In this document: positions 3,649 to 43,947 of the stretch, piece by piece
How the letters are laid out: every line of letters starts with the position of its first letter
Numbering within the stretch: the first letter of the stretch is position 1
Assembly (NCBI RefSeq): GCF_024502345.1
Contig: NZ_JALDNN010000001.1
Strand: one strand, 5' to 3'
Length of the DNA: 64,000 nucleotides
Source: Escherichia coli
GTDB taxonomy: Bacteria; Pseudomonadota; Gammaproteobacteria; Enterobacterales; Enterobacteriaceae
Notes under the pieces: model-generated
What the model saw: the letters and a program-made list of their open reading frames with translations, nothing else
Told to the model about the DNA's origin: nothing
Database searches by the model: none
Made by a program: the position numbers and the translations under genes

Positions 3649-4371
3649 TCACTTATTCTGCGTGTGCAGCATATAGTTCACATCCACGCCGGGGCCGAGT
3701 TTAAAAGTATTAGTGATCGGGTTGTAATGTAGCCCGGTTATATGTCGCTCTTTAAGGCTTGTCTGATCTACCCAGCCAAGCAGCTCTGCCGGTTTAATAA
3801 ACTTCTTCACATCATGCGTGCCTTTGGGCACCATGCGCAAAATATATTCCGCGCCAACCACCGCCATCAGCCATGACTTGCCGTTGCGGTTAAGCGTCGA
3901 GAAAAAGACATCGCCGCCCGGTTTCACCAGTTGCGCACAGGCTCTGACCACTGACTGCGGATCGGGGACGTGCTCCAGCATCTCCATGCAGGTCACCACA
4001 TCATACTGCCCGGCATGTTTTGCCGCGTGCTCTTCCACGGTTTCCTGCACGTAATCCACCTGAATGCCGCTTTCCAGCGCGTGCAGCTTTGCCACCTGCA
4101 ATGGCTCAAAGCCCATATCCAGACCGGTCACCGTCGCGCCTTCGCGCGCCATACTCTCGGCCAGAATGCCGCCGCCACAACCGACATCGAGCACCTTTTT
4201 GCCAAATAAGCCGCCAGCACGCTCGGCAATATAGCCCAGACGCAGCGGGTTAATGCGGTGCAGCGGTTTGAACTCACCTTCCAGATCCCACCAGCGGGAG
4301 GCGACGGCTTCAAATTTAGCGATCTCTTCGTGGTCTACGTTATGGTTTACCGGCGATTTTTCGGCATTCAT
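3649..4371 (-). CDS. ubiG: ubiquinone biosynthesis O-methyltransferase
   Basis: Translation [23 protein letters not shown]... with SAM-binding VLDVGCGGG motif; 240 aa from the internal Met of the 256-aa track ORF. Confidence 0.93.
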
Positions 4372-38671: not shown

Positions 38672-38816
38672 CGATCACCACGCTCCCCCGTTGCTGTGGT
38701 GATCACCATCTTCAGGCACCGGGAATCATCCTTAATTTTTACTTGAACATAAGAGCCCGGTTGCCTGATCCCCTTCAATCACACACAGCGCCATCCGAAC
38801 TATCGGAGGTGAGGCT

Positions 38817-39095
38817 ATGACCAGAATGAGCACCATTTACAGCAGACTTTCATATGGATCAGGAACCACGCTTGCCGGCTGCGGTGTATCAGCGAAGGCA
38901 TATGCCGAAACAGCTAAAACAGCAAAAGAGGTGTCCTGGATGTTGGCCGACAGAATTGCAGGGTTAAGCCTGAGTGACTGGGCAATTATTGTCGGTATCG
39001 CATGCACAGTTATCACCTGTGCAGTGAACTGGTATTACAGGAAAAAGGAAAGGGAGGACCGGCTTAATGGCAATGTCACCAAAGCAGAAGAATAA
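38817..39095 (+). CDS. putative holin (pinholin-like, possible dual start MTRM)
   Basis: 92-aa ORF with strong RBS ggaggtga, hydrophobic TM segment WAIIVGIACTVITCAVNWYY and charged C-terminus; directly upstream of the endolysin. Confidence 0.6.
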   Translation: MTRMSTIYSRLSYGSGTTLAGCGVSAKAYAETAKTAKEVSWMLADRIAGLSLSDWAIIVGIACTVITCAVNWYYRKKEREDRLNGNVTKAEE

Positions 39096-39615
39096 ACTGA
39101 GCGCAGCGGTCGTTGGGTTAATTCTTGCCGGGGCTTCCGCACCCGTGATTCTCGATCAGTTTCTGGATGAGAAAGAGGGTAACAGCACAACAGCGTACAA
39201 GGACGGCTCTGGTATATGGACCATTTGTCGTGGCGCTACGATGGTTGATGGCAAGCCAGTAGTTCAGGGCATGAAGCTGTCTGCTGAGAAATGTTCCAAG
39301 GTGAACGCCATAGAACGCGACAAGGCGCTGGCGTGGGTCGAGCGAAACATCAAGGTGCCACTGACCGAACCACAGAAAGCCGGGATCGCGTCTTTCTGCC
39401 CATATAACATCGGTCCCGGAAAATGTTTCCCATCTACGTTCTATAAGCGAATAAATGCTGGCGACCGTGAAGGTGCCTGTGAAGCGATCCGCTGGTGGAT
39501 AAAAGACGGTGGTCGCGATTGTCGTCTGACCAAAGGGCAGAAGAACGGTTGCTATGGTCAGGTTGAACGGCGAGACCAGGAAAGCGCGTTGACGTGCTGG
39601 GGGATAGACCAGTGA
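39067..39615 (+). CDS. SAR endolysin (T4-lysozyme-like muramidase with N-terminal signal-anchor-release domain)
   Basis: N-terminal [19 protein letters not shown] hydrophobic segment followed by the E-x8-D-x5-T catalytic triad context ([20 protein letters not shown]). Confidence 0.85.
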
Positions 39616-40127
39616 GCCTGCGCTATCAGTTCATTGTTATTTTGTTGCTGGTGGCCGTTGCATTCTTCGCGGGTAGTGTATGGAGCAGCCGCGGTTGGGA
39701 AAAGAAGTGGGCCGAGCGTGACAGCGTAGAATCATCGCAAACAGCGAACGCACAGACCGCCGCTCGCATGATTGAACAAGGGCGTATTATTGCCCGTGAT
39801 GAGGCTGTAAAAGATGCACAAGCACAAGCCGCTAAATCCGCTGCCACTGCTGCTGGCCTGTCTGCCACTGTTAACCAGCTGCGTACCGAAGCAACAAAGC
39901 TTGCCACTCGCCTGGACGCCGCAAAGCACACCGCAGATCTTGCCACTGCCGTCAGAAGCAAAACAGCCGGAGCCGACGCCGCAGTGCTCGCCGACATGCT
40001 CGGACGCCTTGCAGAAGAAGCTCGATATTATGCTGAGCGATCTGACGAAAGCTACCGGGCAGGAATGACGTGTGAGCGCATTTACGACTCAGTGAGGCAG
40101 TCAAACAACAACAGGGTTAGAAGATGA
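39594..40127 (+). CDS. i-spanin Rz
   Basis: N-terminal TM ([15 protein letters not shown]) plus coiled-coil Ala/Gln-rich periplasmic domain; overlaps the endolysin end; contains the embedded Rz1 frame. Confidence 0.75.
39814..40068 (+). CDS. o-spanin Rz1 (lipoprotein) embedded in the +1 frame of Rz
   Basis: Signal peptide with lipobox-like LLTSC, then a Pro-rich mature region; entirely inside Rz. Confidence 0.65.
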
Positions 40128-40354
40128 ACGCAGAAAACCTAAGTGAAGCGTATTACCTCAATAACGATATAAAAGAACTACAACTTCAGAAAAGCATACT
40201 GGAAAGTGGTGCCGGACTTGGTGTGACAATCCAGTCTACCTATCAGGATAACGCCTTTCTTGATGCCATACGCCCGCATGCAGTGGCTGAACTTGATCGC
40301 CGTATTGTGGAGAAGAAAAAAAACCTCTCCACTCTGGGTGTTACATTCTCTTAA
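40124..40354 (+). CDS. hypothetical small prophage protein (76 aa)
   Basis: ORF starting 4 nt before the Rz stop (translational coupling); no recognisable motif. Confidence 0.35.
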
Positions 40355-40738
40355 ATGAGAACAACAATAAAAGGTTATGTCTGCTTTGCCACATTCTGAG
40401 AGTATGAGTTTTATTTGGTAGTCAATCAGTTACTTTATTGGTTTGCTTTCCGATGGAAGATAGATGTTTCCACAGAAGGGGCAAATTAACGTTATATTGT
40501 TTTTTATTCTCGACAGACTGTGCTTTGACTGGCGGGAGCAATGAGGACAAGTACTTTTCACATGGCGTAAAGTACGCATCTTGATATCTTTGAGTATCGA
40601 CATGTTGATTGTCCTGGTGGGCGGTTAACAACCATACACCACATGTTGGCTAATAGCTTCTTTTATAACCGTTACGATGTAGTCGTTAGCCATAATCAAT
40701 CAAGCCTCGCAATAGCGGGGCTTTTTAACAACTGAGGA

Positions 40739-40942
40739 ATGAGCATTACAGTAGTTCTTACAGCTAAGCAGATTGAAGACCTGGCTGCCTTCGCAAAAGA
40801 AGATGGCCAGCCACAATATACCATCACTACCGGAACAATCCCTGAGTTCGAAGCGGATGATGGCGAGGTTATCCCTGAGTACACCGGGCTGATTGCCTAT
40901 TCCGAGTCGCTAGAGCATAGCGTTCTACAGCTCGATAACTAA
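40739..40942 (+). CDS. hypothetical small acidic prophage protein (67 aa); a degenerate paralogue lies at about 42.78-42.96 kb
   Basis: ORF with the motif F-E-ADDG-x-I-P-x-Y-TGL; a similar C-terminal fragment (FDADDGTLSPNTLGLL...) recurs at 42823-42962. Confidence 0.35.
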   Translation: MSITVVLTAKQIEDLAAFAKEDGQPQYTITTGTIPEFEADDGEVIPEYTGLIAYSESLEHSVLQLDN

Positions 40943-40989
40943 CGAATCAACATAACTTTCCATCCGCCATGACACCACAATGCTCGTAG

Positions 40990-41110
40990 ACATGCCAGGA
41001 AGCCTGGCAGAAGAAGCTCGATACCATGCTGAACGCGCTGATGAAAACTACCGAGCAGGAATGACATGTGAGCGGATTTATGAGTCCGTAAAAATACTAA
41101 CAATGAACCG
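40990..41110 (+). pseudogene. remnant 3' end of a second Rz/Rz1 spanin gene
   Basis: Translates to ...[29 protein letters not shown]..., about 80 percent identical to the Rz C-terminus at 40000-40127; no upstream gene body. Confidence 0.6.
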
Positions 41111-41129
41111 TAGAGGAAAAATAATAGCT

Positions 41130-41514
41130 CTATAAATTAAGATGTTGACGGTTTTCGTGGATAAATTTGTGAATTTTTACTATGAAGGAAATACGACTCT
41201 TCCTTGAGTCAAAATCCCTGACAACTTAGGGTGATAGATAAAGGTCTTACGCAGCATGACATAATTTTCGATTTAAGCTATTTAAATTAATTTTTAAGAT
41301 CAAAACCCACTGAGATTTACTTACAAAACTAAACCTTGCTATGTCTGGTTAATCATGCGTTAATGAATGTCTGGTTTGTAACGAATTTATCTGAAGCAGT
41401 CGCTGTAATAATTTTATTCCTTGTTCCTGTTGAGATTTCCTTGTTAGCTTTTCTCTCTGATAAATTTTTTTCGGACCATTCTGCCCAAGGGCTTACTCAA
41501 TAAAGGTAATGTTT
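41130..41514 (+). promoter_or_regulatory. long AT-rich leader/promoter region upstream of the cold-shock gene
   Basis: About 380 bp AT-rich non-coding sequence before csp, as is typical of the long 5' UTRs of cspA-family genes. Confidence 0.35.
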
Positions 41515-41727
41515 ATGTCTAATAAAATGACTGGTTTAGTTAAATGGTTTAATCCTGAAAAAGGTTTTGGTTTTATCACTCCAAAAGATGGTAGTAAAGA
41601 TGTGTTTGTTCACTTCTCTGCTATCCAGAGTAATGATTTCAAGACGTTGAATGAGAATCAGGAAGTTGAATTTAGTGTTGAACAGGGACCTAAAGGCCCC
41701 ACGGCAGTTAATGTCGTGGCTGTATAA
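41515..41727 (+). CDS. cold-shock protein, CspA family (prophage-borne, CspB/CspI-like)
   Basis: [70 protein letters not shown] with RNP1/RNP2 motifs. Confidence 0.9.
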
Positions 41728-41931
41728 GGTAACTGTTATTACTAATAATATTCACTTCAGATGTCCGTGTTGCCACGGATCTCAGTACCGAACGTCAAAC
41801 TTTGATGTTACTGAAAAAAATCCTTTCGGAGCAAAATGTATTTTTTGCAAATCAACAATGATTACATTTGATAATATTGCACTGTACATTCGTTCTGGTC
41901 AGTCTTCGTTAGAATTCAGAAAATAAATTTC

Positions 41932-41953
41932 AGGCTCCTTATGGAGCCTTTTT
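41932..41953 (+). terminator. intrinsic terminator
   Basis: aggctcc-ttat-ggagcct hairpin followed by ttttt. Confidence 0.6.
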
Positions 41954-41999
41954 TGTATGCTGAACCGACAATCTCTGTAAGAGACATCACGGTAAAATT

Positions 42000-42230
42000 A
42001 TGAAAAAAGTCATCGTTTTTTTTAATGCAGAACCAGCAGTTGTTGTAACCGTAATGAAAGGTATTACTACGATAATGCGTGAGTTTCCCAATGGGGAAAA
42101 AGCACACCTACCCGTGATGTCAGCGGGATTTCCATCTCTGACAGGAGACCATAAAATAGTTTATGTAGCCTCTGATCGTGATGTCAGTTCAGAAGAGATC
42201 CTCGAGGCAGCCTCGAAGCTTTTGAAATGA
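42000..42230 (+). CDS. YmcE-like small protein (76 aa)
   Basis: 76-aa ORF immediately upstream of a gnsA/B-like gene, the same arrangement and size as ymcE-gnsA in K-12; identity not verified. Confidence 0.4.
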   Translation: MKKVIVFFNAEPAVVVTVMKGITTIMREFPNGEKAHLPVMSAGFPSLTGDHKIVYVASDRDVSSEEILEAASKLLK

Positions 42231-42434
42231 GATCTGGTTGTTTCGTGACCGACCCGGATTTTAGTACAGTGGTTTGTGTGGTCGCGAGCTCTTTTGCATG
42301 AAGATTGTACTGCAAACTATTGATAATTGAGTCTTTCTATTCTATCTTTTAAACATATCAGCGCTTATACAAGTGCTCTACGGGGAATGTAACATGCCTG
42401 GCGTTGATACGTTAGAGATCAAGAGAGGTAAACA

Positions 42435-42608
42435 ATGAACGTCGAAGATTTAAAAAGAAAAACTGAAGCGGATATTTCTGAATTCATCACAAAAAAAATT
42501 ATTGAACTCAAAAAAAAGACAGGAAAAGAAGTTTCCGATATCCAGTTTAATGCTCGTGAAAAAATGACTGGGCTTGAAAGCTATGATATTAAAATCACAT
42601 TAATCTAA
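42435..42608 (+). CDS. GnsA/GnsB-family protein (57 aa; below the ORF-track size cutoff)
   Basis: Manual translation MNVEDLKRKTEADISEFITKKIIELKKKTGKEVSDIQFNAREKMTGLESYDIKITLI, close to remembered GnsA/GnsB sequences. Confidence 0.8.
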   Translation: MNVEDLKRKTEADISEFITKKIIELKKKTGKEVSDIQFNAREKMTGLESYDIKITLI

Positions 42609-43049
42609 TTGTTATAAGACTCAGTTCGAGTGAAAAAGCATTATCTTGAAAGGTAATGCTTTTTTATTTCTGTCATAAAATTTAGAACGTTGTCAAAGCC
42701 TTCACTTCTAACCACAGATTTTCTGCTTACCTTTTAACGGGTCCTCCTTGACGATTCTGACCATCGAGGGGCAGCAGCGGCGCGGGATTTGGAGCATTTT
42801 TGATTCTTCACGCAACCATTTCAGCATTTGATGCTGATGACGGAACACTATCCCCGAATACACTGGGTTTGTTGCATTCTCTGATTCAAAAGAACACGGT
42901 GTGCTTCAACTTGGCTGAGCAGGCATTACAGCAGACATTCACTGAGTGCCTGCGACAAAGTTAAATGGCATCAAGCATGCGATGATGATTGATTAATAAT
43001 TGAGCTATGCATGGTATAATAAGCCCCATTCATTGAAAGGTTAACCACC

Positions 43050-43214
43050 ATGTCATTTTTCGATTATGCAATGCAGCGTGTTGGGCTTGCAGCCAATACG
43101 ACTGTCATGTGCCCGATATGCGGACATAAATCCACACACTCGACCACGAAAGTACGCCAACAACAGGCGTTACTTTGCCCTAAATGTAAATCGCTGTTTG
43201 TCATTCACAGATAA
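43050..43214 (+). CDS. hypothetical small zinc-ribbon protein (about 54 aa; below track cutoff)
   Basis: Manual translation MSFFDYAMQRVGLAANTTVMCPICGHKSTHSTTKVRQQQALLCPKCKSLFVIHR with CPxCG...CPKC; followed by terminator hairpins. Confidence 0.3.
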   Translation: MSFFDYAMQRVGLAANTTVMCPICGHKSTHSTTKVRQQQALLCPKCKSLFVIHR

Positions 43215-43233
43215 CATGCGACCTGCTGAATAT

Positions 43234-43256
43234 AACCGCCTACGGGCGGTTTTTTA
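43234..43256 (+). terminator. intrinsic terminator (a second hairpin gccactttcgagtggc + T-run follows at about 43271-43293)
   Basis: ccgcc-tacg-ggcgg hairpin followed by tttttt. Confidence 0.6.
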
Positions 43257-43370
43257 TTGCCATCACAAAGGCCACTTTCGAGTGGCTTTTTTAATGGTCA
43301 TCACGACGGGTATTACAGCAGGAATTACTGAGTGCCTGCGATAATGCTCAATATTTTTATCGGAGTGAAT

Positions 43371-43559
43371 ATGCCACCGCGCACACCGAAGGCCGGCCTG
43401 AAAGGGGCGATACAAAAAAGGGAAAAAATGAAAAGACATAAGCGAAATAAAAAAGCCACCACATCTGCAAATGTGATGGCTGGCATTCGGATTAATTCAG
43501 GTTGGCTGAATAAGTTAGCCGCAGATATTACTAAAATAATTAATGAAGCATGTCCCTAA
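43371..43559 (+). CDS. hypothetical small highly basic protein (62 aa)
   Basis: ggag RBS 5 nt before the ATG; translation MPPRTPKAGLKGAIQKREKMKRHKRNKKATTSANVMAGIRINSGWLNKLAADITKIINEACP. Confidence 0.35.
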   Translation: MPPRTPKAGLKGAIQKREKMKRHKRNKKATTSANVMAGIRINSGWLNKLAADITKIINEACP

Positions 43560-43947
43560 TCTCATCTGAGATATCTCTTGGCCCTGCAGGCTGAGGCGCA
43601 ACCAACCGGGTCGGAAGTCTCTCGAAGAAACCACCACCACCATGATGATGAAAACCCCGGTTATTTTTATAACTATTGAAGTTACTGTCGGTAGTGAGAA
43701 GGATGTTGCACTGGTGCGAGCAGTCAACAACAACGACATCACCTGCATTCAGGTGCATTCGTTTGTGAAGAAATTGCATAAGTCTCCTTATCAAGAGGCA
43801 ATCAGCACTCCTCTCAAGGCTGGTACGCCAACGTCCCACCGCTGACGGGCTGAGCCATTACCTTACCCAGACTCAACGATAAGTAACATCCTGATATTCA
43901 GACAGTAACTGTAATCGATAATGCTGAAGAATAGGCAGTAAATACAG

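Follow-up and report, generated by a model that had tools for sequence, protein, structure and literature searches.

Worn Copies of a Dispersed Phage Hairpin Family Border a Zinc-Ribbon Moron in the Late Region of an Escherichia coli Prophage

Introduction

Stem-loop motifs bound genes that have been inserted, deleted or replaced in T4-type phages, and recombination between copies of these promoter-early stem-loops (PeSLs) has been proposed to shuffle the genes concerned (Arbiol et al., 2010; PMC2839356). Here we describe a family of hairpins, termed R, for which the PeSL is the closest described analogue. The starting point was a stretch of 64,000 nucleotides of Escherichia coli DNA (contig NZ_JALDNN010000001.1 of assembly GCF_024502345.1; referred to in full as the window), in which two direct repeats flank a gene for a 54-aa zinc-ribbon protein in the late region of a prophage. 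We show that these repeats are degenerate members of the R family. Both R and the PeSLs are short conserved motifs that form a stem-loop with G-T pairs and start at an upstream stop codon, and both are found in variable regions made up of small genes of unknown function (the hyperplastic regions in the case of PeSLs), where they border swapped genes. The two nevertheless differ in that PeSLs contain a full sigma-70 promoter and their stem-loops have been shown to terminate, whereas the only promoter-like element of R is a GATAAT resembling a −10 box, and a U-run is usually missing. There are ∼50 PeSLs in a lytic T4-type genome but only one to three copies of R in a temperate phage, and it is R that has fixed outer boxes together with a covarying inner stem.

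Other repeated elements can also be compared with R. Boundary (or linker) sequences at the module junctions of lambdoid phages are the basis of a homologous-exchange model of phage mosaicism (PMC3233612, its refs 20 and 21). Like R, they are short, conserved and intergenic, they lie at mosaic junctions, and they could target homologous recombination, but R is a defined hairpin family that is covarying, strand-specific and confined to the interval between the lysis and packaging genes, and it extends beyond the classical lambdoid phages, for example to the myovirus ZF40, phiP27 and ST64B. The attC sites of integrons also follow the open reading frame (ORF) of a cassette, have conserved outer boxes and a variable paired centre, keep to one strand and occur in arrays of unlike copies. 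In contrast to attC, R has neither the RYYYAAC/GTTRRRY core nor extrahelical bases, its copy number is very low, its junction positions are variable, and there is no integrase in the annotated neighborhoods that were examined around it. Finally, repetitive extragenic palindromes and the mosaic elements that they form (REP/BIME) are thought to protect upstream mRNA. These are, as is R, imperfect palindromes of ∼35–40 nt located just after stop codons inside operons, but R does not have the GTAG head, is restricted to prophages with one to three copies per element, and differs in sequence.

Results

The Repeats of the Window Belong to a Hairpin Family

A preliminary description of the window had reported direct repeats around the zinc-ribbon gene, and these are real. 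They extend from 42922 to 42966 and from 43309 to 43352 and are 82% identical over 45 nt with one indel. The possibility raised at that time, that they might be chance matches, was not borne out, as their 15-nt core, ACTGAGTGCCTGCGA, is present exactly twice in the 64 kb, where the chance expectation is 0.10 occurrences with up to two mismatches allowed. Rather than a duplication private to this locus, the repeats are degenerate members of R, a dispersed family of 39-nt two-tier hairpins in which an outer stem (GCAUUA/UAAUGC) is joined through a CA/GA internal loop to a 10-bp inner stem. The outer boxes are near-invariant, with the form (G/C)CATTAC ... GATAATG(C/G), or CAUUAC...GAUAAUG in the RNA, and an intact R sequence of 40 nt is GGCATTACAGCAGGCATTCACTGAGTGCCTGTGATAATGC. 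The inner stems, on the other hand, differ completely from one copy to another (CAGGCA/TGCCTG, AAGCCCA/TGGGCTT, GGAGCCAUUC/GAGUGGCUUC, and others) while the boxes CATTAC and GATAATG are fixed. The R fold has an energy of −24.3 kcal/mol (z −5.4), and G-U pairs, which account for 110 of 877 pairs, give the sense strand a better fold than the antisense strand. The scores of the two strands against the covariance model differ widely in the same direction (for example, 64.5 versus 24.1 bits), and R always has the orientation of the late genes.

Covariation supports this fold. In the seed alignment, which was filtered on folding energy, 96.7% of the cells are paired, both sides have changed in 10 of the 16 pairs, and the score of 0.451 compares with 0.187 after shuffling (a value of 0.451 was reached by none of the 500 shuffles), while 34–44% are paired when the partners are slid against each other. 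The energy filter is offset by a second alignment chosen only by the neighboring gene, a 67-aa gene discussed below, and here 94.2% of the cells are paired and the score is 0.444 versus 0.199. Moreover, in a sample that was not chosen by R, ∼85% of the homologues of the 67-aa gene have an R-family hairpin a few nucleotides after the stop codon.

The first copy in the window, R1 (42923–42961, plus strand), matches the covariance model with 30.6 bits (E = 3e-6). Its inner stem contains an A-C mismatch, and GACAAAG takes the place of GATAATG as the 3′ box. The second copy, R2 (43310–43347, plus strand; 36.5 bits, E = 7e-8), is a degenerate member of class A with a 1-nt deletion and one inner-stem mismatch, although both of its outer boxes are intact. 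Copies of R that are intact score 55–64 bits, compared with the 31–37 bits of the two in the window.

The R family appears to be undescribed in searchable sources. None of the covariance models of Rfam 15 matched at R in the window, in phi80, in mEp390 or in E. coli KSC1031, even at E values of up to 1–5. No paper containing the core sequence was found by a full-text literature search, which does not reach the subscription literature, and word-based searches returned only general models and PeSLs for R-like elements. In 15 of 23 unique contexts, the class B copies of R (such as that at 4110–4147 of locus L134, one of the loci used for comparison) contain Chi, GCTGGTGG, within the loop and the 3′ arm, in the orientation for RecBCD entering from the nearby right (cos) end. 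This may be due to chance, and Chi was not counted as evidence, since it is present at 0.61 per kb in these loci and is absent from the other classes of R.

Distribution and Placement of R

R is present in 52 phage records, including phi80, mEp390, phiP27, cdtI, ST64B, Fels-1, Pectobacterium ZF40 and many Klebsiella phages, in at least 120 IMG/VR contigs, and in 415 of the 5,426 complete genomes of E. coli, where the median copy number is one. It is also found in E. coli Nissle and in many prophages of Klebsiella, Salmonella and Citrobacter, and its hosts include species of Citrobacter, Enterobacter, Leclercia, Kosakonia, Raoultella, Pectobacterium, Rahnella, Ewingella and Mixta, representing several families of the Enterobacterales.

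The upstream stop codon is 0–2 nt before R in 68% of the unique left flanks. In phi80, R comes just after rha, as it does in a DH5alpha-type strain (CP025520.1, 138108–138157), in mEp390 and E. coli prophages it comes just after homologues of the 67-aa gene, and in ZF40 it simply follows a Mom-like gene. The downstream flanks have no common motif, a T-run is present in 14 of the 118 unique right flanks, and start codons are often 10–40 nt after R. The ATG of GATAATG was itself considered as a start codon, but it opened an ORF of at least 30 codons in only 22 of 136 contexts and was rejected. There are one to three copies of R per phage, and in the 19 loci with two or three copies these are on one strand and have different inner stems. 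In many cases just one small gene is located between such copies, and a frequent distance, 311 nt, corresponds to approximately one 81-aa gene and its leader. A more elaborate order is that of L134, in which a 97-aa gene, R, the zinc-ribbon cassette, a KilA-N/Rha-like gene together with an 85-aa gene, and a second R are followed by a promoter, a 94-aa gene and a terminator, then by a third R and a 65-aa gene.

The genes adjacent to R encode DUF2560, an Acb2/Tad1-like protein of 78 aa, DUF551, Rha, a Mom-like protein and a packaging HNH endonuclease. The 78-aa gene, which ends at R in L084 and in seven other loci, encodes a protein that matches the Acb2/Tad1 hairpin domain (PF24729, E = 4e-16), suggesting that counter-defence genes travel as R-bounded cassettes. 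No known defence system was detected by PADLOC among the cassette genes. In mEp390, ∼100 nt downstream of R (L003, ∼2740–2800), there is a stretch that resembles the T-arm and acceptor end of a tRNA (GGTTCGAATCC...), and this is followed by a terminator. The Com/mom system of phage Mu, where a zinc-ribbon protein binds a nearby hairpin, was also considered as an analogy and rejected. The zinc-ribbon protein has no meaningful similarity to Com, and the zinc-ribbon gene represents only 3 of 106 downstream genes in a set of R copies selected by pattern.

R at Module Junctions

A comparison of 149 unique contexts of R showed that neither flank is common in 89% of the 11,026 context pairs. Among the pairs that do have at least 100 nt of common left flank, 80% lose homology within 5 nt of the 3′ edge of R. 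The left flanks form 66 clusters and the right flanks 99, of which 120 combinations are observed, and the type of inner stem mostly tracks the left, or upstream, gene.

Close relatives of the window reveal the junctions at nucleotide resolution. L314 and L316 are 96.5% identical to positions 38754–42965 of the window, with the same pseudogene upstream of R1, and they share the first 30 nt of R1, including a private G-to-A change, before they diverge inside R1 (CCTGC|TGTAATG in L314 and L316, CCTGC|GACAAAG in the window). Beyond R1 they have a different cassette and an intact HNH gene and no zinc-ribbon cassette. Because the GACAAAG ending is present in the zinc-ribbon-linked copies of R that were read directly, namely those of the window, Citrobacter phage Chris1 and L134, R1 is a chimera, the 5′ 30 nt of which belong with the left flank and the 3′ end with the zinc-ribbon cassette. 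On the right side, the identity between L290 and the window is 99.8% as far as the 5′ edge of R2, and from there L290 has a canonical phi80-type R and a phi80 flank. L292 has the same sequence as the window until the stop codon at 43213. It then has Rha, followed by R and a 65-aa gene, and returns to the window sequence at 43592. In L129 an intact 67-aa gene, R and the zinc-ribbon gene follow one another, and the simple order in KSC1031 is the 67-aa gene, R, an intact HNH endonuclease gene and terminase.

The preliminary description had suggested that small cassettes are gained and lost here through recombination between the repeats. It was correct in that the relatives differ by cassette swaps inside R1 and at the edge of R2, but there are junctions outside R as well, and recombination is what we infer from these comparisons. 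A product of deletion between R1 and R2 (pseudogene, single R, HNH stub) was searched for and was not found, and each of the three IMG/VR contigs with the pseudogene either matches the window or holds a different cassette.

Remnants of Genes on Both Sides of the Cassette

The decayed paralogue that had been noticed before the first repeat is also real, as the DNA of 42823–42918 (plus strand) aligns with the 3′ third of the 67-aa gene (phrog_9518), both with the copy at 40739–40942 and with the intact homologues in L129 and KSC1031. This pseudogene is truncated at its 5′ end and its frame is shifted by a 1-nt deletion after 42843. However, the repeat is not the 3′ end of the paralogue, as had been proposed, but is located just downstream of it, with the stop codon of the ancestral frame (TGA, 42916–42918) 4 nt before the repeat. 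The ORF tail that was reported (...ALQQTFTECLRQS) is therefore the repeat read out of frame. A short ORF further upstream (42748–42831, MTILTIEGQQRRGIW...) is similar to the beginning of a 42-aa hypothetical protein annotated in Chris1 (L001, 4333–4461), as well as to an unannotated stretch of Fels-1, and is probably a further gene remnant.

On the other side of the cassette, 43348–43393 (plus strand) contains the leader and the first eight codons (MPPRTPKA) of an HNH endonuclease gene, the rest of which is gone. This remnant is 84–88% identical to the start of the HNH endonuclease genes of E. coli prophages. A plus-strand ORF of 62 aa (43371–43559) consists of the eight HNH codons joined to unrelated sequence that includes a minus-strand terminator (43481–43454), and it is probably not a gene. 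The real gene downstream of R2 is on the minus strand (43540–43839) and encodes a DUF1883 protein (PF08980, E = 7e-15).

The Zinc-Ribbon Unit Has the Layout of a Classical Moron

The 54-aa ORF with four cysteines that had been reported between the repeats is present at 43050–43214 on the plus strand, and the proposed database search with its peptide identified it as a member of the YnfU family with 106 confirmed hits in IMG/VR. It matches NF038384 with 72.9 bits (cut-off 36) over residues 1–53 and PF23499 with 32.3 bits (cut-off 27), and it contains two CPxC zinc knuckles, CPICG and CPKC. Zinc binding is predicted from its membership in the YnfU family. Homologues from the 80 loci that were kept from the IMG/VR hits align over 53–54 residues, which is essentially the whole length, with 72–100% identity, and all four cysteines are invariant in 24 distinct homologues. 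The gene is under purifying selection, with a dN/dS of ∼0.11 and with 27, 13, and 48 variable sites at the first, second and third codon positions, respectively. The identical protein is present in 323 blocks of public assemblies, and in the places that were read the gene is located between the lysis genes and terminases of several unrelated types.

Expression of YnfU, a small E. coli protein that has two zinc knuckles, is detectable (bioRxiv 10.1101/511675). The YnfU of the E. coli Qin prophage and the protein described here are in the same NCBIfam and Pfam family, both have two CPxC knuckles and ∼55 residues, and both are encoded in a prophage late region. The latter represents a diverged branch, however, as its score of 32 bits in Pfam barely exceeds the cut-off, and its gene is on the late-gene strand downstream of lysis whereas the ynfU of K-12 is upstream of lysis and on the opposite strand.

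The gene is preceded at 42993–43020 (plus strand) by a predicted sigma-70-type promoter with an extended −10 (TTAATA-16 nt-TGgTATAAT), for which a consensus scan gave 10 of 12 matches plus the TG. A TGnTAT(A/G)AT motif and an AAAGG/GAGG ribosome-binding site are kept across the diverged upstream regions of the relatives. After the gene there is an intrinsic terminator, T1 (43234–43258, plus strand), in which a 7-bp G+C-rich stem (hairpin 43234–43251) is followed by a U-run, and most of the relatives have a terminator of one of several types no more than ∼25 nt after the gene. The unit of predicted promoter, gene and terminator is a classical moron, and it is absent from L314 and L316 at the same position next to a left flank that is 96.5% identical. 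It has the layout and position of the lambdoid morons, and is missing from a close relative, and nothing essential distinguishes it from them. Its only oddity is the presence of R hairpins at its borders.

Two consecutive intrinsic terminators had been proposed after the gene, and T1 is the first of these. The second (43260–43297, plus strand) instead has a two-tier shape like that of the repeats followed by T6, and it matches the R model weakly (17.3 bits, E = 0.02). The hairpin has a fold energy of −17.8 kcal/mol (z −4.85), its subtype is found with compensating stem changes beside another R in L116, and it is missing from the equivalent position in L134. It is probably a variant of the R family that resembles class B. 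This hairpin of ∼38 nt is extra in the window relative to L134 and is flanked, within 43253–43305, by the direct repeat CATCAC, so that it has the appearance of a short sequence inserted in the tail of the first terminator module.

Setting of the Locus in the Prophage Late Region

The 39–44 kb part of the window is the late region of an enterobacterial prophage. Its matches in E. coli are patchy, and segments identical to the window are present in NCBI assemblies, including GCA_040436445.1. The lysozyme gene (39067–39615) is followed downstream by the Rz/Rz1 genes (39594–40127) and by a run of small accessory genes. These include a 76-aa gene (phrog_5415), a minus-strand paralogue of the YnfU family with 57 aa (40430–40603; NF038384, 76.4 bits; PF23499, E = 8e-15) that is 32% identical to the gene at 43050 over 31 aa, and the intact 67-aa paralogue (40739–40942, plus strand, phrog_9518), which in this copy has no R after it. 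A cspI/ymcF/ynfN/gnsB-like block that matches the E. coli Qin prophage comes next, and the order then continues with the repeat and zinc-ribbon region, the minus-strand DUF1883 gene, and the structural and packaging genes.

A direct repeat of 92 nt, which is 84% identical between 40002–40093 and 40998–41089, represents two copies of the 3′ end of Rz. These enclose the 76-aa gene, the minus-strand YnfU paralogue and the 67-aa gene, and the second copy (40998–41089) is a stub that leads into the cspI/ymcF/ynfN/gnsB block. The Rz-end repeats are a second instance in the window of cassettes bounded by repeated gene ends. Before the cspI-like gene there is a strong match to the cspA thermoregulator 5′ untranslated region (41370–41786; RF01766, 142.8 bits), and an STnc220-like match below threshold (43.2 versus 60 bits) coincides with the terminator of the ymcF-like gene (41884–41960). 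A bidirectional terminator after the gnsB-like gene (42633–42664) has the stem GCATTA.C/G.TAATGC, identical in sequence to the outer box of R but lacking an inner hairpin, and it matches the model with 15.4 bits. The likeness could be due to chance or could be a hint to the origin of R.

Discussion

We propose, with a probability of roughly 0.6, that this region is a mosaic junction zone in which a moron cassette bounded by R has undergone homologous exchange at R, and that R is kept for a role in the transcript. The zone would be situated in the interval of accessory genes between the lysis and packaging genes, and the 30–40 nt shared by copies of R would be sufficient homology for phage or host recombination to exchange the cassettes. 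Phage recombinases of the Red/RecET type work on homology patches of 30–40 nt. An ancestral order of 67-aa gene, R and HNH endonuclease, like that in KSC1031, would have acquired the zinc-ribbon cassette, after which the flanking genes would have decayed to the pseudogene and the eight-codon HNH stub. The retention of R would reflect a structure-dependent function in the RNA, most likely the protection or processing, by a 3′ hairpin, of the part of the long late transcript that comes from the preceding cassette, and the invariant boxes and the CA/GA loop suggest that R has a sequence-specific partner.

Several considerations weigh against this proposal. The zinc-ribbon cassette has junctions outside R, at 42988/9, just before the promoter, and at 43213, the stop codon, and R is therefore a frequent but not the sole point of exchange. 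The sequence common to copies of R whose inner stems differ is too limited for them to undergo efficient homologous exchange with each other, and a simple stabilizing hairpin leaves the near-invariant outer boxes unexplained. R1 and R2 are both worn and may no longer function, and the seed alignment was filtered on folding energy, which is offset by the gene-selected alignment. Moreover, it is from sequence comparisons that we infer both the RNA function of R and homologous recombination.

One alternative is that R is only an RNA or regulatory hairpin that happens to fill the short intergenic space, and that the mosaic joins are produced by random illegitimate recombination followed by selection. 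Random joining is the main alternative to boundary sequences in the phage field (PMC3233612), and the junctions of the cassette at 42988/9 and 43213 are as it would predict, while the gene remnants on both sides, the pseudogene and the HNH stub, show that imprecise events have taken place here too. What makes this explanation unlikely, though one to be taken seriously, is that the junctions are within 5 nt of the edges of R in 80% of the pairs that share a left flank, that one of them is inside R1 and created a chimeric hairpin, and that a near-identical sequence of 39 nt joins 66 left to 99 right flank clusters. The last of these would be hard to achieve without homology-guided exchange or the spread of R together with cassettes.

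It is also conceivable, but rather improbable in our view, that R is a site for site-specific recombination that folds as a single strand in the manner of attC, and that each gene with its R is a mobile cassette moved by a recombinase. The conserved outer boxes, the short unpaired spacer and the variable but paired inner part are all reminiscent of such a site, R goes with the gene upstream of it and keeps to one strand, its arrays are made up of unlike neighboring copies, and the left end of the zinc-ribbon cassette is inside the 3′ box (CCTGC|GACAAAG). However, the core sites RYYYAAC and GTTRRRY are absent from the R alignment, no recombinase gene is present in the annotated neighborhoods or called-gene tables that were examined, and there are only one to three copies of R per phage. 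In addition, the positions of the junctions vary (5′ edge, inside the 3′ arm, 3′ edge), and R is found in phage types with unrelated sets of genes. A broader version, in which R would be the recombination site of an unrecognized phage cassette system, a counterpart of integron cassettes and attC served by a host or phage enzyme, strikes us as a long shot, and so does its corollary that the units of small gene plus hairpin, some with Acb2/Tad1-like counter-defence genes, are the cassettes of that system.

A PeSL-like function, with R as a combined terminator and promoter that attenuates upstream transcription and provides GATAAT as an extended −10 for the next gene, would be consistent with the invariance of GATAAT, the TG(T/C)GATAAT of class A copies and the frequent location of downstream starts 10–40 nt after R. 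The stem-loop of PeSLs often overlaps the −10 box (PMC2839356). On the other hand, R has no −35 at a spacing of 16–18 nt and the classes other than A have no TG. Neither is R a canonical terminator, as the inner stem is followed by GAUAAUG and a T-run is found in only the 14 of 118 right flanks noted above, the variant at 43260–43297 with its T6 being an exception. The zinc-ribbon cassette also keeps a separate predicted promoter 32 nt after R1, and a constitutive promoter before the HNH and terminase genes would be odd in a prophage, and we consider such a function improbable. Lastly, a local duplication generated by insertion of the zinc-ribbon cassette, in the style of a target-site duplication, would fit with direct repeats that flank an inserted unit. 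This origin is hardly credible, however, and is refuted by the fact that R1 and R2 are both more similar to copies of R outside the window than to each other. The identity between R1 and R2 is only 82%, the copies that precede the zinc-ribbon gene in other phages have 2 differences from R1 in ∼46 nt, R2 and its right flank match the R-HNH junction of E. coli prophages, and single copies of R are found in hundreds of unrelated contexts.

Taken alone, the locus in the window is modest, an ordinary moron of the YnfU family between two worn junction elements. The wider significance of R concerns the mosaicism of phages and the question of whether it arises by homologous exchange at boundary sequences or by random illegitimate joining and selection. 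For this R offers a manipulable test case, as it is only 39 nt in length, abundant, has junctions that are sharp to the nucleotide and is present in well-studied hosts, including laboratory strains of the DH5alpha type by virtue of its presence in phi80. R also flags the interval from lysis to packaging as an array of small accessory cassettes and, given that the cargo includes an Acb2/Tad1-like family, it could serve as a search handle for accessory or counter-defence genes of phages. If the proposed role in RNA is true, R would represent a new class of structured RNA in the late operons of phages.

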